Positions 5,990-26,002 of a stretch of 64,000 nt of DNA are shown here, in pieces. Under the pieces are notes generated by a model. That model was not told the DNA's origin, made no database searches, and worked only from the letters and a program-made list of their open reading frames with translations. Origin of the DNA: Minisyncoccota bacterium (lineage in GTDB: Bacteria; Patescibacteriota; Minisyncoccia; Phycocordibacterales; UBA9973); NCBI GenBank assembly GCA_021734995.1, contig JAIPHX010000002.1, positions 16,189 to 80,188 of the forward strand, read 5' to 3'. The position numbers and the translations under genes were made by a program. Each line of letters begins with the position of its first letter. The stretch's first letter is position 1.

Positions 5990-6379
5990 ATGAACAAAAA
6001 AGTTTCAATAATTATCACCCTAAGTCTTATCATCGCTATTGGTATTATATTTATTAGTAGTGGTAACACAACAGACAATACTGCCTCTGTTCAAAATACA
6101 GAAATAAAAGATGGTGTCCAATATATAACTATTGACGCACAAGGTGGATACTCCCCCCAAAAAAGTAAAGCTCAAGCTGGCATCCCGACAAAATTAATTG
6201 TAAAAACAAACGGTACTTATGACTGTTCGTTATCTTTAGTTATAAGATCAATCAACTATCAAAAAATTCTTCCACCGACAGGAGAAGAGATAATTGATAT
6301 TGGTATTCCTACAGCAGGAGTTCCATTTAGAGGAGTATGCGGTATGGGAATGTATAATTTTGAAATAGAGTTTAGTTAA
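5990..6379 (+). CDS. Secreted cupredoxin-like (Cupredoxin_1-type) protein
   Basis: Signal/TM N-terminus and a C-terminal GVCGMGMYNFEIEF motif resembling the CGMxM cupredoxin-like domain proteins found next to copper ATPases. Confidence 0.5.
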   Translation: MNKKVSIIITLSLIIAIGIIFISSGNTTDNTASVQNTEIKDGVQYITIDAQGGYSPQKSKAQAGIPTKLIVKTNGTYDCSLSLVIRSINYQKILPPTGEEIIDIGIPTAGVPFRGVCGMGMYNFEIEFS

Positions 6380-13497: not shown

Positions 13498-13557
13498 CCT
13501 AAAAAGTTAGATAAAATCTAAAACTGCCACAAAATCACAACCCCCTAAAACATTGTG

Positions 13558-13630
13558 TCCGCCCTCTTGGGTTCGAACCAAGGACACTTCGAGTATAAGT
13601 CGAATGCTCTACCAACTGAGCTAAGGGCGG
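13558..13630 (-). tRNA. tRNA with anticodon UAU (tRNA-Ile2-like)
   Basis: 73-nt cloverleaf. Acceptor is CCGCCCT/AGGGCGG, D-arm GCUC-AGUUGGUA-GAGC, anticodon stem UUCGA/UCGAA with loop CUUAUAC, and T-arm CUUGG-UUCGAAC-CCAAG. Body is Ile-like. Confidence 0.7.
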
Positions 13631-14310: not shown

Positions 14311-17300
14311 TTATCCTGCAATATCCACAGCAGGTAAATCTTTTTTCTTTAATTCTATACCATGAGCAACTAAAATCTTTTCATATTCTTCTTGTTCAAG
14401 AGTCTCTACTTCTATGAGTTTTTTAGCAATAGCATCTAAGGTCTTACGATTTTCAGTGAGAACTTTCTCAGCAGATTTTAATCCCCCATCTACTATTTTT
14501 GATATTTCATCATCCACCTTTGCTGAAACAGCTTCAGAATATTCTTTATCTCTGGAACCCTCCCAAGCAGAACCACCTCCAGATCCCACAAGCGCAATTG
14601 GACCTATTGCATCAGACATCCCAAATCTTGTAACCATTGCTCTAGCTACATTGTTGACCATTTGCAAATCACTAGAAGGACCAGTGGTAACATCTCCAAA
14701 CACCATTTTTTCTGCTACATATCCACCTAAAGACATCGCAATATCATCAAGAAACTCTCTTTTAGACTGAAGTCTTCTGTCTTCAAGAGGAAGTTTTAAG
14801 GTATATCCTCCTGCCCTACCACGAGCAATAATAGATACTTTGTGTACTGGGTCAGAAAAAGGCAATACTGATGCTACTAGCGCATGCCCTGCTTCATGAT
14901 ATGCAGTAATTTCTTTTTCTTTTTTTGAAAGAAGATGACTTTTTCTTTCTGGCCCAAGCATTACCTTTTCTATCGCTCGGATCAAATCAAACTGAAATAC
15001 TTTTTTACGATTTTCTCTTGCAGCCAAAATAGCTCCTTCGTTCATCAATGAATATAAGTCTGCTCCAGAAAATCCAGGAGTTCGCTCTGCGATAACTTTT
15101 AAATTTATATCTTCAGCTAAAGGTTTACTGTTTGAATGAATCTTTAAAATCTCCTCCCTGTCTGCTCTATCAGGTAGATCAAGAATAACTTTTCTATCAA
15201 ATCTTCCTGGACGAACTAAAGCAGGATCTAGTACATCGGGTCTGTTGGTCGCTGCCATTACTATGATCTTTTCATTTGGTTCAAATCCATCCATCTCTAC
15301 CAAGATTTGATTGAGTGTCTGCTCTCTCTCGTCATTTCCTCCACCAAAACCACCACCACGAGTGCGTCCAATAGCATCTATTTCATCTACGAATATAATA
15401 GCGGGAGCAGATTTTTTTGCCATTTTAAATAAATCTCTTACTCTAGATGCCCCAACCCCCACAAACATTTCTACGAATTCAGATCCAGACAAATGAAAGA
15501 ACGGGACACTCGCCTCACCCGCCACTGCGCGTGCAAGCATTGTATTGTGTGAAATAAGTCCATTTGAAATAAAAGAATGTGTTTTAGGAACAGTAAAATC
15601 ATAAACCCTTGCTTTATTATTGGTAATCTCTTTTACAGGTGAAAAAAATAATTTAGCTTCTAAAATTGAATTTAGATACTCTGTATTTTCATTATGAAAT
15701 CCCATCTTTTTACATCTGTCTAAAAACAATTCCAAAGAATTTCTACTGATCGTTTTTCTTGTCTTTACTTTATGAATTAACTTTGAACACCACTCATTGC
15801 TTAATTTTCTATCACTTAACTCTTTCCATGTGTCATGCACAATATGATGTATGTCATAAAATAAATCTATGTTTGTGTTTCTTTTAGTATGTAAAGACAA
15901 ATATTTATTCATTTCTTTTTGTTTTCTAGACAAACGAAATCCTACATTTTTAGAAAACTTTTCAAGCTCTACCCCAGAAACAGTAATCTCATATACATCT
16001 TTTAAATGACTATCATCTTTATGACGTTTGATTCTTCTTTTTGGTACAATACCCATATTCAAAAGTATTGCAAATACCTGATCAGATAATTTTTTACTTA
16101 CAGTTGAGTAGCCAAAAGAATATCGATGGAAATATCCATCTGAGTCAAATAATCCTTGCAAAAATGCAATTAAAACATGTTTTGGAGCTTGCAAAACAGA
16201 AGATGGAATAGCTTTATCATATGAGAGCAAGTAACTCATTCCCATCTCATATAAATCTTTTTTCATCTTCCAAGATGTCACTAAATGAGTAATACCGTCT
16301 CCTGCTAATCCTATATTAGTATCAGGATAATTTTCTGATACATAACTTTTAAAAGAACCTACTAACTCTTCATCTACAGAGGTAAAACCAATTCTACTAG
16401 CATGGCTTAAATTTCCATCACCTGTTAGGAGTCCCATAATATAAGCTTGGTCCGAAGAAACTTCTCTTGAAACACCATATACTTCTGTCCCAAATTTAAT
16501 AGCCACGTTGTCTCCTTCTTTTATTTCTTCTAATTTTTTAAACACGAGATCCCCTTTACTATCCATTACAATTACTGGATGTTCTGGTGTTCCCTCTAAA
16601 TCAACTCCTTGTTTTAAAGTAATCTTAAAAGTATTTTGTTCGCCCAAATCATACCAGTGAGAAGCCTCTTGGTCTGTTGTACGAGAACGAGTAACATCAA
16701 AAGTGGGCAATATTGCTCCTTTTACTGTGTGATCTTTTGGATTAACCCAAAAATATTTTGGGATATCTTTAATTTCAACCAACCCTTTATTTGTTAAAAC
16801 CAAAGAATCCCCTGTAATACATTTCCCTGTTCCGGGAGCCCCTGTAAGAATTACTCCTTTTGGGATTCTTGCTCCTATCTCAAGAAATTTTTTAGGACTT
16901 TTTAGAAAATCTACTATTTCTTTTAATTCTTCTTTTGCTTCTTTGCAACCCGCTACGTCTTTGAAAGTTACTTTGTTGTTTTTGTCATTAGGATCAGTAA
17001 TGCGAGCTTTGGATTGACCAAAAGTAAAAGCTTGCATCCCTGCGCCTTTTACTTGTCTTGATAAATACCAGAAAATAAAAATAATAAAAATAATCGGTAG
17101 TAAAAATGGTAAAATATTTAAAAGCCAAAATCCTAGACCGCTCTGATCTTTAATCTCAAGAGTAGTCCCTGCTAAAGCTTCTGCGCTTACGCCATAATTT
17201 GCTAAAGTCTCAGACAAAGATGACTCTACTTCTTTTTTTGCTTTCTTTACCTCTTCATTCTTGTAAGTCACAGTAATATCTCCTCCTGAAACTACAATCT

Positions 17301-17508
17301 TCTGCACTTCTCCTGCTGTAATAGCCTTTGCTAAGTCTGAAACAGGTATCTCTTCACTTTTCTTTGAAGAATTAGCGACAAAGAGATACAAAGCAGTAAT
17401 AATCATCAAAATTAAAATAACAGAGGCCATACTGCCAGATAATCCTGGGCCTGCATTTTTTTTTCCACCCTTCTTCCCCCCTTTTTTATTTAAAATATTA
17501 AAATCCAT
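14311..17508 (-). CDS. ftsH: ATP-dependent zinc metalloprotease FtsH, interrupted by an intein (precursor)
   Basis: Two N-terminal TM helices, AAA module (Walker A GAPGTGK|T split by the intein, Walker B IIFVDEID), HEAGH zinc motif and an FtsH C-terminus. The likely start is MDFNILNKK at 17508. The mature protein is about 639 aa. Confidence 0.9.
15544..16821 (-). mobile_element. FtsH intein (426 aa, with LAGLIDADG homing-endonuclease domain)
   Basis: Begins with Cys directly after GTGK and ends ...SHN, followed by Thr, the P-loop Thr. Internal LLTGDGN and [12 protein letters not shown] dodecapeptide motifs are present. Confidence 0.8.
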
Positions 17509-17570
17509 AGTTGCATTGTAGCATGAAAATTTATTAAAAGAAATTATAAAAATTATGCTAGAATAGCTAT

Positions 17571-18017
17571 ATGCCCAACTACGCAGAAAATAAAAAAGCA
17601 AGATTTGAATACGAGATTTTGGAAAAATATGAAGCTGGCATAGAGCTTACAGGAATGGAAACAAAATCCGTCCGACAAGGAAAAGCCTCTTTTGAGGGTG
17701 CTTTTGTAATTGTGCGTGGAGGAGAAGCTTTTTTAATAAATGCAAACATCACTCCTTTCCAACCCAAAAATGCTCCTGAAAATTATGATCCACTTAGAAA
17801 CAGAAAACTATTACTGACAAAAAAAGAAATCAGAGAGTTAGCTGAATCTGAGGCAAATAAAAGTTTGACAATAGTGCCTTTAACGATGTATAATAAAGGG
17901 AGAAAGATAAAGATCCAAATAGCATTGGTAAAAGGTAAGAAAAAATTTGATAAGAGAGAAACAATCAAAAAACGAGAAACCGATCGTATAATCAGAAGAA
18001 CTTTGAAAGATTACTAA
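17571..18017 (+). CDS. smpB: SsrA-binding protein SmpB
   Basis: 148-aa protein with RFEYEILEKYEAGIELTGMETKS. The start overlaps the ftsH promoter region. Confidence 0.85.
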   Translation: MPNYAENKKARFEYEILEKYEAGIELTGMETKSVRQGKASFEGAFVIVRGGEAFLINANITPFQPKNAPENYDPLRNRKLLLTKKEIRELAESEANKSLTIVPLTMYNKGRKIKIQIALVKGKKKFDKRETIKKRETDRIIRRTLKDY

Positions 18018-18041
18018 CGCACTTCGCGTCAGTATATATAT

Positions 18042-18437
18042 GGGGATGATAGGCATAGACAAGAGTCTTGTTTATCTGAATGCATGTCGAGAATGAACGT
18101 AATCTCGCTAAACTTCGTTCAAAACGTTAATTGCAAAATTGACTTCAAAAGTAAAGGCAATCACTTCTCCATACTTCGGTATGCAGGATTTTGCTTTTGC
18201 TCCAGCACGCGCTTAAGTGGGCTGGTGTCTTTCTCGTAGACTTCCGATATACGAAGAGAGGCATAATATTATCGGGATAGGAAAAGAAACTTCCCACTCT
18301 TCTTCCAAAACTTAGGGAATCGTTTGAAAAATATTTTGCTTACTTTATAATTTTTCAAACTAAACATAAGGTAAGACACACATGTAGAAATTCAAATATC
18401 AACCTTTTGCACGGGGATTCAATTTCCCCCATCTCCA
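18042..18437 (+). ncRNA. ssrA: tmRNA (ssrA)
   Basis: Lies immediately downstream of smpB. The 5' GGGGAUG pairs with the 3' CAUCUCC to form the acceptor stem. The T-arm is GGGGA-UUCAAUU-UCCCC, with discriminator A. A candidate internal tag ORF ends at TAA (18214-18216). Confidence 0.7.
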
Positions 18438-19962
18438 CATCAAGGGTATGACCAGCCTCAATTCGGTCAAATAGCTTATAAAGACAGGACTTTTCAGGGG
18501 TTCGATAACCCATTTCATGTACAAAGACAATTTTGTCATCAAACATGAAAGAGAAAAGCTCCTGTTTTTGCTTTACGGTCCCTTTTTCCCATATTTTATA
18601 AGGGCTTTTTATCATGCCCGTTATCTGATCATACGAAGTTCGATAAGGAATAACGTAGTCAATTTCTTTACCTAGTTTTTCCTCTATTTTCTCTAACTCA
18701 ATAGATTTTTCTTCAATTCTTTTCTGATAGCTTCTTTTCACTATCAGATTTTCTATTCCAATCGACTCATCTGCCAAACCGCCGATCTCCTCTTCAAGTT
18801 TACTTTTCTGTTTAATTAACAATTCCGATTGTTTACCAATTCCTTTTATTTCGTCATTCCATAAATCTTCAAACATCATCCCAACAATACCCACTAAGTC
18901 TGATTTAGGTTTATTATCTTTTACAAGTTTCTTAAATCCATCATCAATGTCCTTTTGCTTCACAGTCTTACTTCTCAATGCACACGATCGATACTGACAT
19001 GAATAATACGGGTGACGCTTACCAGTTTTACTTCTAGAATAATAAGCAGTCATCTTTCTGCCACATTCTGAACAGCAAACTAATCCTCTTAATGGAAACT
19101 CTTCTCGGATATCTTGCCTGATTACCGCATCTCTAGCTTCGCCATTAATTCTTTTCACATTTGCAAAATAAACCTCTTCAGAAATTACACCTTCGTGTTT
19201 GCCTTTCTGTCTTCTTACATCCCACTTCTCATATTCAATAAAACCAGCATAAAAAGGATCAAGAAGAAGTTTCTTTGTTGTCTCTAAGTATTTCTCAGCG
19301 TGACATTTTTTAGAAAAGAAACCTTTCTCCTGGAGAAATCTAGCAAGATCGATAATCCTTACAAACCGCTTATAGGCAAAACCTTCTAAGCCTTCCTTTA
19401 AGATTAATCCTGCACTATTTGGAAAACATGTGTTTCCATATTCAGTTCTACGCATCTCATAACCTTTAGGGGCATGGAAAGCCCAATAACCCCTCTCTAG
19501 ACGAGCCTTTTGCTTTTGAATAACTTGTCTCTTGTTCTGGTTCCTTTCAAGCTCTGCTCCTGCGGCAAGTATCACTTCTACATACTGACCTTCAGGACTT
19601 TCATCAAAGCTGAAATTCAAACACTCAGGCACAATCCCTCGTGTTCTAAATGCCGTTCTAAGTTTTAAGTGGAACTCGACATCTCGAGCAAAACGTTTAA
19701 GATTGTCAAAAACAACAACGAAATTATGATGAGGTTTTGAGTCTACGTATTCAAGAAGAGATCGCATTGCTGGTCGTGCCATAAAGTCTCCTCCACCTGT
19801 AAAGCTATCTTTAAAGACCTTTGTAGGCTCGCCATACCCCCTATTAACACAATAAGTGCGACATCTCTGTTCCTGAGACTCTAAACCACCACCTTCACGC
19901 ATTTGGCGCTCTGATGAGACACGGCAATATATGATTGGTATTCGTTTAATTTCTTCTTTCAT
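18355..19962 (-). CDS. Large serine recombinase (integrase)
   Basis: N-terminal resolvase catalytic domain (YCRVSSERQ), a recombinase domain and a Zn-ribbon (CSECGRKM...YYSCQ) with a coiled-coil C-terminal region. The last ~27 codons overlap the tmRNA 3' portion. Confidence 0.85.
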   Translation of the reverse strand: MKEEIKRIPIIYCRVSSERQMREGGGLESQEQRCRTYCVNRGYGEPTKVFKDSFTGGGDFMARPAMRSLLEYVDSKPHHNFVVVFDNLKRFARDVEFHLKLRTAFRTRGIVPECLNFSFDESPEGQYVEVILAAGAELERNQNKRQVIQKQKARLERGYWAFHAPKGYEMRRTEYGNTCFPNSAGLILKEGLEGFAYKRFVRIIDLARFLQEKGFFSKKCHAEKYLETTKKLLLDPFYAGFIEYEKWDVRRQKGKHEGVISEEVYFANVKRINGEARDAVIRQDIREEFPLRGLVCCSECGRKMTAYYSRSKTGKRHPYYSCQYRSCALRSKTVKQKDIDDGFKKLVKDNKPKSDLVGIVGMMFEDLWNDEIKGIGKQSELLIKQKSKLEEEIGGLADESIGIENLIVKRSYQKRIEEKSIELEKIEEKLGKEIDYVIPYRTSYDQITGMIKSPYKIWEKGTVKQKQELFSFMFDDKIVFVHEMGYRTPEKSCLYKLFDRIEAGHTLDVEMGEIESPCKRLIFEFLHVCLTLCLV

Positions 19963-20058
19963 AATCCTCGATTTCTTCTTTTATTACCTTCTGTATCAGA
20001 GCTTCCAGATAACTCACAGTTTTCACTGCTTCCTCTCGAGTTAGATGAAGTTTCTTCA
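19945..20058 (-). CDS. Small ORF (37 aa) overlapping the recombinase start
   Basis: Encodes MKKLHLTREEAVKTVSYLEALIQKVIKEEIEDYERRN. Its stop overlaps the first codons of the recombinase. The role is unknown; a directionality or regulatory factor is possible. Confidence 0.2.
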
Positions 20059-20176
20059 TGCATAACTCAATATATTTTTCTTTTACCACAAGCCATTTGC
20101 TGTGGTTTAGCTCTAGTGCATCTAGCGACCTTACCTTATTTCTTATTTAAAACGTCTGAGGCATTCAGTACGTTGG

Positions 20177-21061
20177 TTATGGTTTTTCCATAACATCTGT
20201 CTCTACCGACACAAATTTTCCATCTTTTATTTGGAATGTAATGCTTCCAAATTCTCCTCCATTCTTAACAATTTCTCCCAAGACTTTGTAAGGGTTAGGA
20301 TTATTCTCAATATCCTTTTTAGATATATGACTTACAATTCCATTTTTAAATTTAATGGTTACGGCTTTATATTCACCGGACCGAATAATATCGAGAACAG
20401 AAAGCTCCTTGTCTTCAAGGTATGAGGGGATATTTTCTTTCGAAATCAAATCCGCCTTATCTTTAAGGAAACGATTTTTAATGATATTGAAATTTATTTT
20501 TATATAGTTAGAGTCGATATATCCAACCAACTCAGAAAAATCAATTTCATCTCTAGTACCCACATCTGCCCTACCGTCAGGAGCAACAATCATGAAAAAG
20601 TCTTTGTCTTTCTGAATGAATGATCTCAATAAATATGTTTCGAGAATAACTGCATTTGAATTTTTAAAAAATGACTCCTTTGTAGTCTTTATATTTTCAA
20701 GAGGGACACCAAAGCGTCTAAGTTCCATAGCAATTTGAAGCCAAAACAACTCTAAAAAGCTAAGCATTGTAGTTGCATTCTTTTCTCGTGTATCAAGTAG
20801 CCCAGCTTGTTTCCAATGACTTAAAACTCGGCGATTTATTTTCAACTCTGACGGTTTAAATTTCTTTTCTCGGACCTTATTCAGAACAGGCTTTTTCTCA
20901 CCTCCAATCATTCCTAAAACTAGGTAACTAAAACCCGATCTTATGATATTAAATTTAGGCAAATTTGATGTCGCTTTCATGTTACATAAATTGTAACACA
21001 TCTGTAACATAATAAAAATACCCAACCTGTTTGTAACTAAGGCAAATGGTACATCCTCCAA
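20177..21061 (-). CDS. MerR-like HTH regulator with unknown C-terminal domain
   Basis: SELKINRRVLSHWKQAGLLDTRE...LSFLELFWLQIAMELRRFGVPLENIK resembles the MerR N-terminal HTH and dimerisation helix. The C-terminal ~180 aa is unassigned. Confidence 0.45.
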   Translation of the reverse strand: MEDVPFALVTNRLGIFIMLQMCYNLCNMKATSNLPKFNIIRSGFSYLVLGMIGGEKKPVLNKVREKKFKPSELKINRRVLSHWKQAGLLDTREKNATTMLSFLELFWLQIAMELRRFGVPLENIKTTKESFFKNSNAVILETYLLRSFIQKDKDFFMIVAPDGRADVGTRDEIDFSELVGYIDSNYIKINFNIIKNRFLKDKADLISKENIPSYLEDKELSVLDIIRSGEYKAVTIKFKNGIVSHISKKDIENNPNPYKVLGEIVKNGGEFGSITFQIKDGKFVSVETDVMEKP

Positions 21062-21089
21062 CCTCCCACACTGTTTTTCACACTGTTTT

Positions 21090-21310
21090 TTGATATCTTT
21101 CGAGTTTCTTTCGATTATTTTTGTGCTTTGCTGTTTTTTGTTTTGTCGAGTAAATGTCGAGTTTTTTGCTTCGTTTCGATTTTCTTTCGATTATTTTATA
21201 TTAATTGACCCAGTTTTTACCGAGTATTTTTATTTAACTTTTCTGAAACTTTCGGTTTTCTTTCGGTTATTTTTTGCTTTTTGTCGATTATTTGTCGATT
21301 TTTTCAATTT
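21090..21310. repeat. Iteron-like array of degenerate direct repeats T(T/G)TCGA(T/G)T(A/T)TTTT (about 12 copies)
   Basis: Examples: TTTCGAGTTTC, TTTCGATTATTTTTG, TGTCGAGTAAA, TGTCGAGTTTTTTG, TTTCGATTTTC, TTTCGATTATTTTAT, TTTCGGTTTTC, TTTCGGTTATTTTTTG, TGTCGATTATTTGTCGATTTTTT. All lie in the intergenic or promoter region of the MerR-like gene. Confidence 0.6.
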
Positions 21311-21983
21311 AAGAGATTGCGATATCTATGTTTTTGATACCACTAAAGTCGAGAGGATTTTCTACTTTACTCAAAATAAACAGATTTACATTCCAAATAT
21401 AAGGATTAGCCACAGTAAAGATCGATGACTTTTGTCTGCCTGTAGTTGCAATCTCAATAGCATCAGAGTGCATCTTTATCTCTATAATCTTTGAAAGTGG
21501 TATGACTCGATTTTCCATAGTGCCCCTGAATACGAGCTTTTTGTTTGTAATTATCAAGTCTCCACTTTCTACCGATCTAAGCTCCTGATTGCTCTCAGAT
21601 TGCCCCTTATAGCCTCCCACATGCACACCTTTCATAACTCTGAAGCCAATCCCTAAACCTACTGAATTCCTAATAGATTTTGACTCCATTAAAACAGTGT
21701 TTTCTTTCAAAAAAGCGTACTCATCTTTTTCTAATAAAAGCGAAGTTGAGATAGGTTCGAGTTTCTTTTCTAACTTGATCTTCTCGACCAGATTTCGAGC
21801 CTCATCTTTCTGTTGCTGATCTACTAGCGCCTTGTTTTTAACACTACCTTTCTTCGATCCATACCAGAATAAAACGATACCTGCAATCAAACCGAATACA
21901 CCAAGAGCGGGATCGATGACCGAGGATATCAACCATATACAAACGGCAATAAGTGCCAATTTGGTCTTACTTAAATTTTCCAT
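21309..21983 (-). CDS. Membrane protein with bacterial PH (bPH_2-like) domain
   Basis: Two N-terminal TM helices. C-terminal LIITNKKLVFRGTMENRVIPLSKIIEIKM...IEIATTGRQKSSIF matches the bPH fold profile. Confidence 0.5.
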   Translation of the reverse strand: MENLSKTKLALIAVCIWLISSVIDPALGVFGLIAGIVLFWYGSKKGSVKNKALVDQQQKDEARNLVEKIKLEKKLEPISTSLLLEKDEYAFLKENTVLMESKSIRNSVGLGIGFRVMKGVHVGGYKGQSESNQELRSVESGDLIITNKKLVFRGTMENRVIPLSKIIEIKMHSDAIEIATTGRQKSSIFTVANPYIWNVNLFILSKVENPLDFSGIKNIDIAIS

Positions 21984-22002
21984 TTTTGTAGCGAGTTTTT
22001 AT

Positions 22003-22140
22003 TAATAAAATACTTTTGGGCAGACAAAAAGCCCGCCGCCAAGCTGATGGTCCGAGGACCACCCATGCCCGTTTCCAGACATGACTCGCTACAAGCAACC
22101 CTGACGACGGGTTCTTTATCTTGTAGCGAGTTTTGCAACC
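22003..22140 (-). ncRNA. GC-rich structured leader / putative small RNA upstream of the bPH gene
   Basis: The ACTCGCTACAA motif occurs three times, twice direct and once inverted, so two mutually exclusive 11-12-bp stems are possible. There are additional GC hairpins (GGTCC..GGACC, GGGC..GCCC). GC content is far above the local background. Confidence 0.3.
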
Positions 22141-22210
22141 ATATCCTTTTGTGTTTACACAAAAGGGGTTAGGTCGACTGATATTCAGTTGTAATTCTAT
22201 TTTAACATAA

Positions 22211-22564
22211 TTACGACCAAATTCTATCGGTAAGTTCTTGCGTTAATATACCTAAACTTGTACCAGTAGTATCAACAACATTTATAACAATCATGTCAAA
22301 AACAAATTTACCAGTATCATTAGTAATCAATTCAACATAGAAAACGAGATCATAAACTTCTGGCAGATTACGAGAGTAGGTTTTCCCGTCCAGTTTAGTT
22401 TTTATTTGTATAAACTTTATGTTTCTTCCTTTAATCGCAATTAAATCATTACCACTATCTTTTATTGGTGGCGCGGCTTGAATACCAAACTCAAGAAGCT
22501 GTAACTGTGAGAATATTTCTCCTATTGCTCCCACGTATGTTGTTTTTGGTAGAGGATTTCCCAT
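22211..22564 (-). CDS. Small hypothetical protein, possible PD-(D/E)xK-like fold
   Basis: 117-aa protein. GNDLIAIKGRNIKFIQIKT resembles a D...(E/Q)xK core. It is the last gene of the defense operon. Confidence 0.25.
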   Translation of the reverse strand: MGNPLPKTTYVGAIGEIFSQLQLLEFGIQAAPPIKDSGNDLIAIKGRNIKFIQIKTKLDGKTYSRNLPEVYDLVFYVELITNDTGKFVFDMIVINVVDTTGTSLGILTQELTDRIWS

Positions 22565-22582
22565 ATGTATTAAAGGAACTTT

Positions 22583-24328
22583 TTACTTATCGTAGTCAAC
22601 TTCAATATCAAGACCGAGCAATTTCTCTTCTGGTGAGCCATCCTTTAGGGCAAGAACTTCTTTACTTTCAATATATTTGATCTCGTCTGCTGAAAGATAT
22701 TCTTGGTTCTTAATTTGATCCAAAAAGTCTTGGTTGATTGTGAGAATATACTGAAGATTATTTTCCTCACAAATCTCAGAAACAAGTTTTAGGAATACTG
22801 CGACTTGTCTAGCATCTGTGTCACTAAGAATACGGCTGTCATGCGCCAAGAACTTTATGCCATGATTTGTCCCACCCATAACAAAAATAGTTAGATCGAA
22901 GCAAAGCATCTTTACACCAGCTATTCCATCCGAACTGTCATATTTGATGCGAGCATCCAGGTCAAATTGAGTTTGGTTATCTTTTGTATTTTCTTTAACG
23001 GTAATACCTGCGGTGGAAGATGGATAAAATGTTTCAGAAAGTTTAGTAAAGAAAGCATTATTTTTTTCATTCAAAGTGTCAACACTCAGCTTATAATCCA
23101 GCGCTTCTTTTTCTGCTTCTGCTCTTTCGATTTTAATTTCACTCTTTCTTTTCTTATTGTGATCAATGAGATTTTTGTACCTCTGTAATGACTCTAGTTC
23201 TTCTTGGGCTTGAGTTTTTTGTTGCACCAAAACAGAATAATCTTCCAGGGCACCGCCACTTCCTAACATACGAAGATAATCATCAAGCTCTTTATTTTTT
23301 AAAGAAAGACTGCCTTTTATCTTTTTTATTTGAGGTAATAATTCCGCTTTCTGTTTATTGAGTTGAGTAACTCGTTTGGTAGTTATTTGATTATGGAAAG
23401 ATAGAGTGTCTTTCAGGTTTTTCTTTAAAAGTTCAGGAAATTCAACAGATACTTTCTTGTACGCTAAAAGTACCTGATTTTTTTCAAGATCAAGTGGTAC
23501 AGCATTTTCAATTGTCTTATTTATATTTTGTAATCTCTTTTCAAGAATGAGTAATTCATTGATCAATGATTTTCGCTGATAGGATACCTGATCAGCTTCA
23601 CTTTGAATTTGTCTATTATTTTCTGCAATTTCATAATTCTTCAATCCGTTTTCAGCATCTTTAATCTTCACTCTGAGCTCTCTGAGTGCAATATCGACAT
23701 CGCTGTATTTAAGGAGAATACTCCTTACCTCATTGTCTTTATCAAGGGCATCTAAAACCACCTTTATCTTGTCAGCTTCTTCTTTAAGAACTTTCTTTTT
23801 AACTAAGTAATCAATATCAAAACCCAATAAATAGAAATTATTTATCAATTTCTGAAAAGGTTTTTCTCTTAAAAATACAGTATCCCAACTTACATAGCTT
23901 TGTTTCTTGGCACGCAAAAACCTATTCATTATTGTGCGGTAGCTGATATAAGGGTACTTACCTAGGTCAATATTAAAAAGCATCTCCTCCATTCTTTTAT
24001 TAAAAAGATCGAGTGATAATTCTTCTTCATTTAAATAAACTCTGTTTGTTTCCTCAGCAGGTCTTCGAACGGTGTAAGTCTTTCCGTCGTGTTCAAAATC
24101 AAGATAAAAGACCCAACCTTTTAGGCTATTTTTAAAAGCGTTATTATCTGATCCAAGACAAAAATCTATTATTGAGAGAAGAAGACTTTTACCTACTCCA
24201 TTAAAAGTTTTAGTGGTTGATTTGTCTTTGGGGTCTTTTTTTCCACCAAAAATAATATTCAAACTATCCGTTTTGAAGATGACGGTCTTAAATGTATCTT
24301 TGTTTGAATAAACTTTTAATAATTGCAT
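22583..24328 (-). CDS. SMC-like ABC ATPase with central coiled coil (LmuB/ABC-3C ATPase-like)
   Basis: N-terminal Walker A (FNGVGKSLLLSIIDF), a long coiled-coil middle region and a C-terminal Walker B/D-loop (MLCFD..FLAHDSRILSD). Confidence 0.6.
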   Translation of the reverse strand: MQLLKVYSNKDTFKTVIFKTDSLNIIFGGKKDPKDKSTTKTFNGVGKSLLLSIIDFCLGSDNNAFKNSLKGWVFYLDFEHDGKTYTVRRPAEETNRVYLNEEELSLDLFNKRMEEMLFNIDLGKYPYISYRTIMNRFLRAKKQSYVSWDTVFLREKPFQKLINNFYLLGFDIDYLVKKKVLKEEADKIKVVLDALDKDNEVRSILLKYSDVDIALRELRVKIKDAENGLKNYEIAENNRQIQSEADQVSYQRKSLINELLILEKRLQNINKTIENAVPLDLEKNQVLLAYKKVSVEFPELLKKNLKDTLSFHNQITTKRVTQLNKQKAELLPQIKKIKGSLSLKNKELDDYLRMLGSGGALEDYSVLVQQKTQAQEELESLQRYKNLIDHNKKRKSEIKIERAEAEKEALDYKLSVDTLNEKNNAFFTKLSETFYPSSTAGITVKENTKDNQTQFDLDARIKYDSSDGIAGVKMLCFDLTIFVMGGTNHGIKFLAHDSRILSDTDARQVAVFLKLVSEICEENNLQYILTINQDFLDQIKNQEYLSADEIKYIESKEVLALKDGSPEEKLLGLDIEVDYDK

Positions 24329-24567
24329 AAATGTAAATTGAAATTCTTATCGACCTCTACTGCACCAAAAGAATAGAGTAAGTCTAAGGCTAAAACAAAA
24401 TTTTGATGATTGTGGTAACTTGGACAGCGTTTAGTATTGTTGACAGCACTAAACTTTACCCAAAGCCCTTCAATTGAAACTGGTTTATCCAGTAATTCAA
24501 TAAGAACCCCAGAAAGTCCGAATATTGAGTCGTATAAACTAACATGTTTTGATGGAAAAATTATCAT
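24316..24567 (-). CDS. Small middle component (83 aa) of the ABC three-component system (LmuC-like)
   Basis: Small helical protein whose coding sequence overlaps both neighbouring genes. Its position is typical of an ABC-3C/Lamassu middle component. Confidence 0.4.
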   Translation of the reverse strand: MIIFPSKHVSLYDSIFGLSGVLIELLDKPVSIEGLWVKFSAVNNTKRCPSYHNHQNFVLALDLLYSFGAVEVDKNFNLHLCNY

Positions 24568-25499
24568 TTTGGTTCTTTGTATATATCACAACTTTCAAAG
24601 TAAAGCGCCATGAGGCTCAGTGCCGCTTTTCTTATCGCTGGCTCCATCATGCTATGAGATGAACTGCAGGTAAGAATGTCAAAAAATATATTGTCGGAAC
24701 ACTCCTCGTCTGCAGGCTCTCCATATTTTTTGACTGCTGAATTATATAGATGAGTAAATTTCTCTTGCAGTTCTTGTTTCAGCTCTTTATCGTCTATTTC
24801 TGAGAAATATTTTTCTACCTCTGATATGTTTTCATAATGCTTCTTCAGCATTTCGGTTGAGGATGCACTTAGGTGGTTAAATGCAATTTTTTCTTCGAAA
24901 TCAGGTGCGATAAGCTTGGCGCTTACATCATCAGGAATTTCCAATGATTTAAGATGTTCAGCAACAATATTCAGAGACTCGTAACTTAGTATTGTCTCGT
25001 CTGAATTTAAATGCAAAATTTCATCTTGTTTTTCTGGAGATAACTCTCTAAACATTCTTTGCAGATCATCAGCGTTGAATAGGTGAAATTTGATCTCAGA
25101 ATACTTTTTAGTTTTTTGAAGTTTGCTTAAAGCGCTACGTAGATCAGGATAAGCACCCTGAAACTTATCGTTAAAAGCAAAATAGAATTCCTTTATCGGA
25201 TCAATATCATTCCAAAACTTGTAAAGACCACCGAAGTCAGTGATCATTTTCTCTACCGCTTTTTGAGCGTTCTCTTTGGGATTTTCTGGGGAATAAACTT
25301 GATAAAAAATCCCTTCACCTTCTCTGTAGCCATCATTCTTCTTATCTCCCTTTGAGCCTTGTGGTTTAACCTTTTTAAAATTAGTGAAAGCAGAAGTAGC
25401 AACCTTCCAGAATAAATCCTGAAATGCTTGGGCATTGGCTTCGGTGATTAAGCCTCTCAAAATTTTTCCTGATATACGTTGATATTCAATCTGGTTCAT
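24564..25499 (-). CDS. Putative effector component (LmuA-like) of a Lamassu/ABC-3C-type system
   Basis: 311-aa protein. The N-terminal GDKKNDGYREGEGIFYQVYSPE region resembles a restriction-endonuclease-like core. It is the first gene of the operon and overlaps the next gene. Confidence 0.4.
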   Translation of the reverse strand: MNQIEYQRISGKILRGLITEANAQAFQDLFWKVATSAFTNFKKVKPQGSKGDKKNDGYREGEGIFYQVYSPENPKENAQKAVEKMITDFGGLYKFWNDIDPIKEFYFAFNDKFQGAYPDLRSALSKLQKTKKYSEIKFHLFNADDLQRMFRELSPEKQDEILHLNSDETILSYESLNIVAEHLKSLEIPDDVSAKLIAPDFEEKIAFNHLSASSTEMLKKHYENISEVEKYFSEIDDKELKQELQEKFTHLYNSAVKKYGEPADEECSDNIFFDILTCSSSHSMMEPAIRKAALSLMALYFESCDIYKEPK

Positions 25500-25834
25500 G
25501 CTCTTACTATTTTATCAGAAAGTAACATACAAAGAAATGCTTTGAACAGTTGATTGAGTACTTTTTAAATCAACGAACTAGTAAGAGTAACTTGTTCGTA
25601 TTCTCTATATGAAATCCAAGGTCGCTATACAACCCAGCCCAGTCAAAAGTTCGAAATCATACCTCCAGACGAGTAAAGACTCAATACTCAACCTTATATT
25701 CAATACTAGGATTGTGCCTATTAATTAAAAATTAATTATTGTAAAACAACATTTAAATTAGCGTTCTGTGGATCATTAAAATATTGATACCACTGATACA
25801 TAAAGCTTTTTATAGAGTTCAGTAGATTTCGGCT

Positions 25835-25846
25835 CATCTCCACATC
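25835..25846 (+). repeat. Third, degenerate copy of the tmRNA 3'-end core (CATCTCCACATC)
   Basis: Matches 18429-18440 exactly. The flanking sequence GATTTCGGCT resembles the tmRNA T-arm 3' strand AATTTCCCCC. Confidence 0.5.
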
Positions 25847-25852
25847 GCTCTG

Positions 25853-25880
25853 AAAAACTGCCTTAATGGCAGTTTTTTGG
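25853..25880. terminator. Bidirectional rho-independent terminator
   Basis: AAAAACTGCC-TTAAT-GGCAGTTTTTT. Confidence 0.6.
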
Positions 25881-25975
25881 TGCGACTGTGGTGCACAAGT
25901 GGGAAATTGAATAGCCGGAGCGCGACGGCGCGAGGCGGGGTCGCGGGTTTTGCCAGTAGGCAAAAACCTGTGACT
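25881..25975 (-). other. GC-rich structured element B (homolog of element A), adjacent to the distal att repeat
   Basis: On the minus strand: GGTTTTTGCC-TACT-GGCAAAACC, CGCGA-CCCCGCC-TCGCG, then GCGCCGTCGCGCTCCGGCT (shared with A), then ATTCAATTTCCC (identical to the tmRNA T-loop region), ending ...GCACCA before the terminator. Confidence 0.35.
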
Positions 25976-26002
25976 CATATTTCCCCCATCTCCACAAACA
26001 AC

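Follow-up and report, generated by a model that had tools for sequence, protein, structure and literature searches.

Islands integrated by a serine recombinase at ssrA, the gene for transfer-messenger RNA (tmRNA), are already known from Dehalococcoides. McMurdie et al. 2011 (PMC3146451) describe genomic islands specific to ssrA (ssrA-GIs) with a 540-aa CcrB-like recombinase, DsiB, beside attL, 20-bp repeats, tandem arrays and remnants. Here we describe a similar arrangement in a Minisyncoccota bacterium, within a window of 64,000 nucleotides (NCBI GenBank assembly GCA_021734995.1, contig JAIPHX010000002.1, positions 16,189 to 80,188 of the forward strand; coordinates below are positions in this window). 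Downstream of smpB, the window very probably carries a 7.4-kb integrative, non-viral defence island. It would belong to a family widespread in Paceibacteria and the candidate phyla radiation (CPR), in which the large serine recombinase (LSR) has attP inside its own gene and uses the 3' end of ssrA as attB. What is new is the self-split LSR gene and the clade-wide targeting of tRNA-like genes.

The Dehalococcoides ssrA-GIs resemble the window island in several ways. They too are integrated at the 3' end of a single-copy ssrA, with a reverse-strand LSR of about 540 aa adjoining attL and with the ssrA end repeated in direct orientation on their flanks. In both cases there are tandem arrays and remnants without a recombinase, and the islands are small and mobilizable (presumably so here), with variable cargo and a small structured RNA (tRNA-like there, the LOOT RNA here). 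The crossover is placed in the T-loop in Dehalococcoides, whereas here it falls at TCCAC at the discriminator, with a core of down to 5 bp; only an outer 18-bp repeat of the window starts in the T-loop, as a Dehalococcoides-type site would. The conserved module there is DsiB with DsiA (a small serine recombinase), a RecF-like protein, ParB and Mom, whereas here it includes a MerR-like protein (C1) and a protein of about 56 aa (C2). No second Resolvase-domain protein, ParB or Mom was found among the island open reading frames (ORFs). The host phylum also differs, as do the extension to tRNA-Ala and the split LSR gene. We found no description of a recombinase gene spanning attP in the accessible portions of McMurdie et al. 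2011 (PMC3146451).

The islands catalogued by Islander at tRNA genes (tDNAs) are likewise integrated at tRNA or tmRNA 3' ends, with the gene preserved and the integrase beside the target. They are defined by a tyrosine integrase, whereas the only recombinase of the window island is of the serine type. According to the Islander authors, no serine integrase was known to act at a tDNA; later, with TIGER, they counted only 14 of 297 cases, unproven. The initial annotation had compared the locus with staphylococcal SCCmec/Ccr. The analogy is reasonable, in that an LSR places a cassette with its cargo at a conserved single-copy gene's 3' end and short direct repeats result, but the Dehalococcoides islands with their CcrB-like DsiB are the closer precedent. 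SCCmec targets rlmH (orfX), a protein gene, rather than ssrA; CcrA and CcrB act as a pair (or CcrC acts) where a single recombinase is found here; and the cargo is resistance genes instead of defence genes. We know of no split recombinase gene in SCCmec/Ccr.

Mx8 integrates at a tRNA gene's 3' end, and its integrase is less active in the prophage, where it takes the form IntX. In Mx8 (IntP/IntX) and SSV, the integrase ORF spans attP and its C-terminus is altered or split on integration (Tojo et al. 1996, as summarised in a paper citing it). The ORF here likewise crosses attP in the free form, with gene and tail contiguous in circular contigs and the tails displaced in integrated copies, but the Mx8 and SSV integrases are tyrosine recombinases and this one is a serine recombinase. 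In BPs-type phage immunity, the repressor is truncated on integration and loses a degradation tag. According to a report on mycobacteriophage BPs and its relatives (PMC4557955), attP lies in the repressor gene and integration changes the C-terminus and behaviour of the protein. Integration state is thereby sensed through the position of an att site in a coding gene, as could be the case here, but the affected gene encodes a repressor, and the elements are phages with a tyrosine-type integrase. Our literature search found no serine integrase with a gene spanning attP, and nothing relevant on CPR serine recombinases at tmRNA; most subscription journals were outside its coverage, and the absence is weak evidence.

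We identified the target gene by covariance-model search. The whole Rfam model RF00023 was covered at 18042-18440 (+), with 116.9 bits and an E-value of 5.4e-45, directly after smpB (17571-18017, +; a 148-aa ORF, PF01668 SmpB). The initial annotation had recognised this tmRNA gene from its stem and T-arm. Of the two modelling tools, Rfam bore it out and ARAGORN reported no tmRNA in the window, which we regard as a false negative settled by the full-length Rfam match. The SmpB of the window shares 56-81% identity with those of 80 Paceibacterota/Nomurabacteria genomes, and in these relatives the island genes are not found beside ssrA. There are three exceptions, each with an overlap of the tmRNA 3' end: in L062 and L075 an LSR homologue (43% and 37% identity, respectively) is arranged at ssrA as in the window, and L085 retains a remnant. 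This agrees with the proposal that the locus is an insertion at the 3' end of ssrA.

The integrated-state recombinase ORF encodes 535 aa (18355-19962, -). Positions 18442-19962 are island-encoded, while 18355-18429 are read-through on the tmRNA antisense strand, so that about the last 28 codons overlap the tmRNA gene. The protein contains a Resolvase catalytic domain (PF00239, 1.9e-19, residues 10-159) and a zinc ribbon (Zn_ribbon_recom PF13408, 1.1e-7). PF07508, recorded for many homologues, reached 17.8 bits in the window copy, under the cutoff of 21.1. Y12, V15, S16, R90, R93 and D94 are invariant across 30 homologues. The profile of the family matched the catalytic domain of TP901-1 integrase (3.9e-14), and a PHROG integrase was matched at 9e-49. 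Sequence searches of the PDB covered the catalytic domain only; the full-length likeness came from a fold search. In that search, the AlphaFold2 (AF2) model of P0003, a protein 69% identical to the window LSR with long helices at 354-431, aligned over its full length with entries 9dxd/9dxf/9dxh (E 2e-18) and with the Bxb1 and phiC31 integrases. We take these cryo-EM entries to be SPbeta integrase. The sequence and model evidence thus identifies the protein as a large serine recombinase reading into the tmRNA gene, as first annotated, with putative attP x attB catalysis.

Homologues of the LSR were numerous (1735 at E<=1e-20) and came mostly from Parcubacteria/Paceibacterota. The C-terminus of 77 of the 120 best reads ..VEM.GIEP.C, which is what CATCTCCAC and a T-arm encode on the antisense strand; others terminate in the kind of peptide that antisense tRNA genes give. 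We retrieved 80 metagenomic loci with the family alignment. The LSR 3' end was found to overlap an antisense tmRNA in 47 of these and tRNA-Ala in about 20, with tRNA-Ile (2/80) and tRNA-Arg (1/80) being rare. These overlap counts identify the LSRs as a clade that specialises in the alanine-type acceptor end found in tmRNA and tRNA-Ala.

The recombinase gene was found to be split in the integrated state. A 12-bp exact repeat, CATCTCCACATC, which the initial annotation had overlooked, is present at 18430-18441 and 25835-25846. The minus strand of the first copy, the attL core, encodes D-V-E-M of the recombinase. The second copy, the attR core, encodes the same DVEM within an ORF of 80 aa (25736-25978, -), located at the opposite end of the island and ending in ...SDVEM SRNLLNSIKSFMYQWYQYFNDPQNANLNVVLQ and a stop codon. 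The 32 codons and stop after the core (25736-25834, -), which form the P arm of attR, are in frame with it and correspond to the displaced 3' end of the recombinase gene. About ten homologues without a tmRNA-antisense end carry a tail of about 35 aa, for example DVDTRRNLLNRLKDYLKRFWEYYESSPAMQKALISA, and homologous tails close the recombinase in P0003, P0054, P0048 and others. A hidden Markov model (HMM) built from nine tails matched the window segment at 8e-18. Wherever a locus had sufficient flanking sequence, it located a tail-coding segment 3-8 kb upstream of the LSR and on the LSR strand.

We then compared the junctions across the family. GTGGA (Val-Asp/Glu) occurs in the LSR frame both at the junction and directly before the tail in 26 of the 27 complete islands. 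A search for the core by longest common substring had given chance matches in 9 of the 27 loci and was replaced by anchoring on GTGGA. Where the repeat search chose the true core, fusion at the core yields ORFs of 527-546 aa (543 aa in the window). The core shared by the whole family is (T)GTGGA(GAT), or TCCAC in the tmRNA sense, at the discriminator; in the window, TCCAC at 18434-18438 comprises the last three acceptor bases, the discriminator A and the next C. Two circular contigs show the LSR gene contiguous with the tail: L146 (7749 nt, with a 127-nt end overlap) and L158 (7422 nt, with a 55-nt end overlap). Their sizes of about 7.4-7.6 kb fit the range of the integrated islands (4.2-9.3 kb). 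In a tandem locus, L134 (3829-11491), the tail of the inner element continues the reading frame of the outer LSR, a distant relative with 24% identity. L086 (3578-11632) fits the same tandem reading, and L115 (6129-11878) has several partial core copies between the recombinase and the tmRNA.

The circular contigs together with the in-frame displaced tails indicate that attP lies within the LSR gene and that integration swaps the C-terminus of the enzyme. By this comparison, attP would be located 35 codons before the stop (32 codons beyond the 12-bp core of the window). The end read into the tmRNA, 22 antisense codons in the window and often 5-10 elsewhere, had been taken for the C-terminus of the recombinase; the real tail is encoded at 25736-25834.

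We place the true ends of the island at the 12-bp repeat. The island would then extend from about 18442 to 25846 (7.4 kb) and would sit between the tmRNA 3' end and the native ssrA terminator, which is displaced by 7.4 kb. The initial annotation had instead bounded the island by an 18-bp repeat, ATTTCCCCCATCTCCACA. This repeat is exact, as reported, and occurs exactly twice in the window, at 18422-18439 and 25979-25996, where none is expected by chance. However, the core of the family is only GTGGA, and the outer copy (25979-25996, +) closes a module of about 150 nt that follows ssrA in island-free relatives and is not an att site of the island. The genes downstream in the window (p181, p162, sigma) were syntenic with ssrA in none of the 80 relatives. 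Exact flanks could therefore not be compared, and the alignment of the post-ssrA module was used instead. In L035 and L040, ssrA directly precedes a homologue of window positions 25847-25996. The host sequence at 25847-25978 (+) aligns to the sequence directly after ssrA in both, which represents the unoccupied state. This alignment joins about 18441 to 25847, in place of the junction of 18439 to 25997 predicted earlier. The T-arm and acceptor strand are chromosomal, and the trailer past the crossover is all that changes; the ssrA 3' end is not, as had been thought, brought in by the element. The empty site is predicted to read ...CCCCCATCTCCACATCGCTCTGAAAAACTGCC..., written also as ...TTTCCCCCATCTCCACATCGCTCTGAAAAACTGCC..., and the circle junction ...ACCCTTGATGTGGAGATGAGCCGAAATC.... 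Written out as 18470 to 18442 reverse-complemented, the core, and 25834 to 25800, the predicted circle junction is ...CTTGATGTGGAGATGAGCCGAAATCTACTG...; the predicted attP is 25810-25846 joined to 18442-18470. Base composition did not mark the island from its surroundings.

The post-ssrA module contains a terminator hairpin at 25853-25878 with an A-tract and a T-tract, just outside the inner repeat, followed by a degenerate inverted copy of the ssrA end (about 25885-25910), GC-rich hairpins and the direct 18-bp copy. In L035 and L040, a homologous hairpin is located right after ssrA, and the rest of the homologue of 25847-25996 follows, including GGGAAATYGAATAGCCGGAG and the GC-rich stretch; the module of L035 also has a direct copy of the ssrA end. 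Direct copies of 13-19 nt were found 138-267 nt past ssrA in L035, L080, L056 and L067, with no island between. In the last three, an inverted copy lies at +57 to +80 and the direct copy at +138 to +267. Inverted copies were also found 54-94 nt outside attR in seven other islands, each matching the T-arm of its own genome. The predicted RNA fold of the module has a free energy of -72.9 kcal/mol (z -6.6 against shuffled sequence). No Rfam family was matched, the E-value scan giving chance matches only. Since the module follows ssrA in island-free relatives, the 18-bp repeat belongs to a separate module of the ssrA locus.

The assembly of sample SRR12088350 breaks at 25925-25955, in the GC-rich part of the module, where the ends of L002 and L003 overlap by 30 nt. 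We considered this break as a possible junction and rejected it, as it is a plain 30-nt overlap in a GC-rich spacer. The break suggests that the GC-rich stretch is repeated or variable in the community.

How the module arose is a separate question. A sizeable minority possibility is that the outer 18-bp repeat and the 131-bp spacer are the scar of an older element that targeted ssrA, with the present island nested in it or in tandem with it. Such an element, perhaps DsiB-like or perhaps with a tyrosine integrase, would have had its crossover in the T-loop and supplied a new ssrA 3' end, which the present island would have entered later. Classical tDNA islands have this layout, a target gene followed by a displaced 3' fragment as a direct repeat, and both the 13-19-nt repeats at 138-267 nt after ssrA in several relatives and the tandem arrays and remnants in the family (L134, L115, L085) are in line with such a history. 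However, the module sequence is kept between genomes sharing only 76% SmpB identity, the inverted copy matches the T-arm of its own genome each time, and the fold score points to a function, as an RNA or a protein-binding site, rather than to a decaying scar. The module may otherwise be a secondary site.

It is improbable, in our view, that the element is primarily a small plasmid or replicating circle that integrates only occasionally. Circular contigs of 7.4-7.6 kb do exist, one at 36x coverage, the conserved C1 has no assigned function beyond a helix-turn-helix (HTH), and only 3 relatives of the LSR were found among the 2.9 million viral contigs of IMG/VR. Against this, most copies are integrated (70 of the 80 metagenomic loci and 77 of the 120 best homologues), and no replication initiator was recognised in the island protein scans. 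We therefore retain the integrative island as the preferred reading.

To characterize the att sites of this island family, we aligned the arms on the GTGGA core. The B arm, which in attL consists of the ssrA T-arm and the acceptor 3' strand, carries the T-loop as the motif T[CT][GA]AA[CT] (TYRAAY), which starts at +17 from the G of GTGGA, on the LSR strand antisense to the tmRNA or tRNA, in 22 of 25 loci. In the P arm, which is the tail, TYRAAY occurs within AAAACATCGAACC and starts at +22 in 18 of 25 loci. The outer motif is thus 5 bp nearer the centre in attB than in attP, with one arm analysed per site. For the LI (Listeria) integrase, Rutherford et al. 2013 described a zinc-ribbon motif lying 5 bp further inward in attB than in attP and proposed this displacement as the basis of their discrimination. 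Counting back from the motif positions of that study places the centre of the site inside GTGGA, as does the shared identity. The ssrA trailer, in most cases a terminator hairpin, makes up the B' arm. A candidate for the P' motif, GGYTWTTTG (the RLFEEF codons), was rejected because it would put the centre outside the shared core. On the P' side, about 60 nt inside, the conserved GYRT codons (M-G-Y-R-T, 18498-18511) read ATCGAACC on the LSR strand, a third direct T-loop-like copy, and the tmRNA strand there forms a small terminator-like hairpin, GGGTTCGATAACCC.

Several observations weigh against the split-gene island as we describe it. No empty site was found in the same species, and L035, which provides the unoccupied homologue, is a different species (76% SmpB identity) whose flanks differ beyond the module. 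To find an empty site or a circle, we also looked up the exact proteins of smpB, of the gene downstream and of the LSR; the only contig recovered was this one, from two Logan samples (SRR12088350 and SRR12088351), and it is occupied in both. We recognised no convincing inverted P' half-site matching the P-arm motif, and the crossover dinucleotide is assigned to TCCAC from shared identity only. In the AF2 model, the tail forms two helices after a disordered linker, with a pLDDT confidence of about 55-76, and the conservation of tail codons ~7-10 (TSNRLK, encoded by ACATCGAACC) reflects the DNA site and not the protein.

The last two points would also be expected if the tail were not a functional protein segment at all, its sequence being constrained only as attP DNA and the true C-terminus lying at or near the core. 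The most conserved codons, T-S/L-N-R-L-K, do coincide with ACATCGAACC, which mimics a T-loop. We think this explanation has only a slim chance of being correct. Conservation extends about 100 nt from the core, far past the 25-bp half-site contacted in the structure of an LSR bound to an attP half-site. The 28 tails align without gaps and 20 of them stop after exactly 35 codons from the core Val, and the tail ORF is always open and in frame. Divergence is concentrated at third codon positions (0.555, compared with 0.39 at first and 0.37 at second positions), and the median dN/dS beyond the first nine codons is 0.37. This pattern is consistent with a conserved tail that matters to the enzyme.

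The original proposal, an island of 18440-25978 bounded by the 18-bp repeats and using them as its att core, has next to no likelihood despite the exactness and uniqueness of the repeat in the window, because the same module of terminator and inverted and direct ssrA-end copies follows ssrA in island-free relatives, the far-end junction is GTGGA before the tail in 26 of 27 family members, the resulting circle would have a stop right after the core (...GTGGAGATGGGGGAAATATGA) and lose the conserved tail, and gene and tail run on without a break in the circular contigs.

As a split-gene island, the element most likely works as follows. The sequences show the free form to be a circle in which the LSR gene crosses attP, and the B' arm at attB is the trailer and terminator of ssrA. 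Recombination within TCCAC at the ssrA discriminator puts the island between the tmRNA and its terminator, with the tmRNA sequence unchanged by integration. The integrated LSR ends in the tmRNA-antisense read-through ...DVEM-GEIESPCKRL..., while the conserved helical tail, ...DVEM-SRNLLNSIKSFMYQWYQYFNDPQNANLNVVLQ, remains at attR, at a distance of 7.4 kb. The 543-aa enzyme would be restored on excision or by a tandem neighbour. By analogy and from the conservation of the tail, the swap may alter the activity, stability or directionality of the LSR. Most likely, loss of the tail would damp or retune recombination after integration, as for Mx8 IntP/IntX. This copy of the island may still be mobile. 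In addition, ssrA without its terminator faces the LSR gene, and read-through from it could silence the LSR.

A more speculative possibility, which we rate at well under even chances, is that the location of attP within the gene serves to sense whether the island is integrated and thereby sets directionality, through the two enzyme forms and ssrA read-through. The circle would make the full-length tailed enzyme, competent for attP x attB. The integrated, tail-less enzyme, with a host-encoded junk end, would be under different coiled-coil control and be either locked off or permissive for attL x attR together with C1/C2. Read-through from the terminator-less, highly expressed ssrA would oppose the integrated LSR. 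If true, this would be an LSR directionality switch that needs no separately regulated directionality factor, in a CPR clade targeting tRNA-like genes.

Every sizeable ORF between the 18-bp repeats is on the minus strand, as annotated at first. By clustering the proteins of 27 islands, we found that the conserved module beside attL consists of C1, C2 and the LSR, while the rest of the content varies. C1 (20177-20980, -) is a MerR-type HTH protein of about 270 aa that accompanies the LSR in 20 of the 27 islands. Its homologues match MerR_1 at 33-39 bits (cutoff 21.6) and the window copy at 16.1 bits; the homologue in L086 shares 49% identity. C1 is a candidate regulator or directionality factor. 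Between C1 and the LSR, a small ORF overlapping the LSR start (19959-20063, -; 34 aa as called in L001) has the translation ...VSYLEALIQKVIKEEIEDYE and resembles the consensus of C2, ..YLEAFCRNII..EL, a conserved protein of about 56 aa.

The cargo of the window island is an ABC-3C system. Its genes overlap in one operon, and the ATPase (DUF2326; 22583-24328, -; PF10088, 3.9e-29; PDC-M68B, 2e-75), the middle component MC6 (24316-24567, -; PF20293, 4.1e-13) and the effector-type protein with a C-terminal CTD10 domain (24564-25499, -; PF20275, 8.1e-16; PDC-M68A, 2.6e-12) are all present. PDC-M68 is a candidate system in PADLOC, and protection against phage is putative. Of the earlier assignment to a Lamassu/ABC-3C-like operon, the ABC-3C part holds. 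Lamassu was rejected, the match to LmuB being weak (3e-14, compared with 2e-75 for PDC-M68B) and LmuA and LmuC being unmatched in the PADLOC scan. The remaining cargo comprises a 224-aa protein with an N-terminal membrane segment (21309-21983, -), which had no significant match in the Pfam, PADLOC or PHROG scans, and a 117-aa protein (22211-22564, -), whose one match is phrog_5018 (1e-4), a family of unknown function. Neither capsid nor conjugation genes were seen. Sister islands also carried mostly defence genes, including type I restriction-modification (R-M) in L124, with a fused methylase-specificity protein in three islands, IetA and IetS in L135, a type II endonuclease in L104, an OLD/Gabija/Septu-like ATPase in L106 and a second ABC-3C ATPase in L114. 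These elements are small integrative non-viral defence cassettes, presumably mobilizable.

A LOOT RNA (RF03000, 79.8 bits) was found at 22046-22175 (-), followed by a terminator-like hairpin at 22045-22030. LOOT RNAs were inside 15 of the 27 other elements scanned, including the circular L158 (7298-7422); further examples are in L090 (4844-4972), L156 (7037-7156) and others. In L062, the LOOT RNA (6126-6245) lies about 4.6 kb from the tmRNA; the far end of this element is unmapped, and it was not counted as inside. When antisense to the LSR, LOOT is located immediately upstream of C1; when in sense, one to three cargo genes lie between them.

The host neighbourhood of ssrA was also found to vary. 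In the window and some relatives, ftsH is upstream of smpB-ssrA and divergent, while in many others it is downstream and co-oriented (window 14311-18440 compared with L009, L014, L020, L035 and others). The variable placement of ftsH suggests that the ssrA neighbourhood is a rearrangement hotspot in the clade. The ftsH gene of the window (14311-17601, -) is split by an intein with a LAGLIDADG homing-endonuclease domain (Pfam Intein_splicing, LAGLIDADG_3). A tRNA-Ile gene with the unusual anticodon TAT is located at 13557-13630 (-), and two recombinase relatives elsewhere are inserted at tRNA-Ile(tat) genes (L136, L167).

An LSR clade acting at tmRNA and tRNA-Ala, which have a common alanine acceptor end, contradicts the generalisation of Islander and TIGER on serine integrases. 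A gene spanning attP would give two natural isoforms tied to the integration state, through which the role of the C-terminus in directionality becomes testable; C-terminal control of directionality in serine integrases is an active structural question. The orphan LOOT RNA gains a genomic context. The compact islands show how phage defence, including ABC-3C, IetAS, R-M and OLD-like ATPases, moves among bacteria with small genomes. CPR/Patescibacteria are almost without genetic tools, and circles of 4-9 kb with a defined attP and a conserved single-copy attB are candidate vectors for them.

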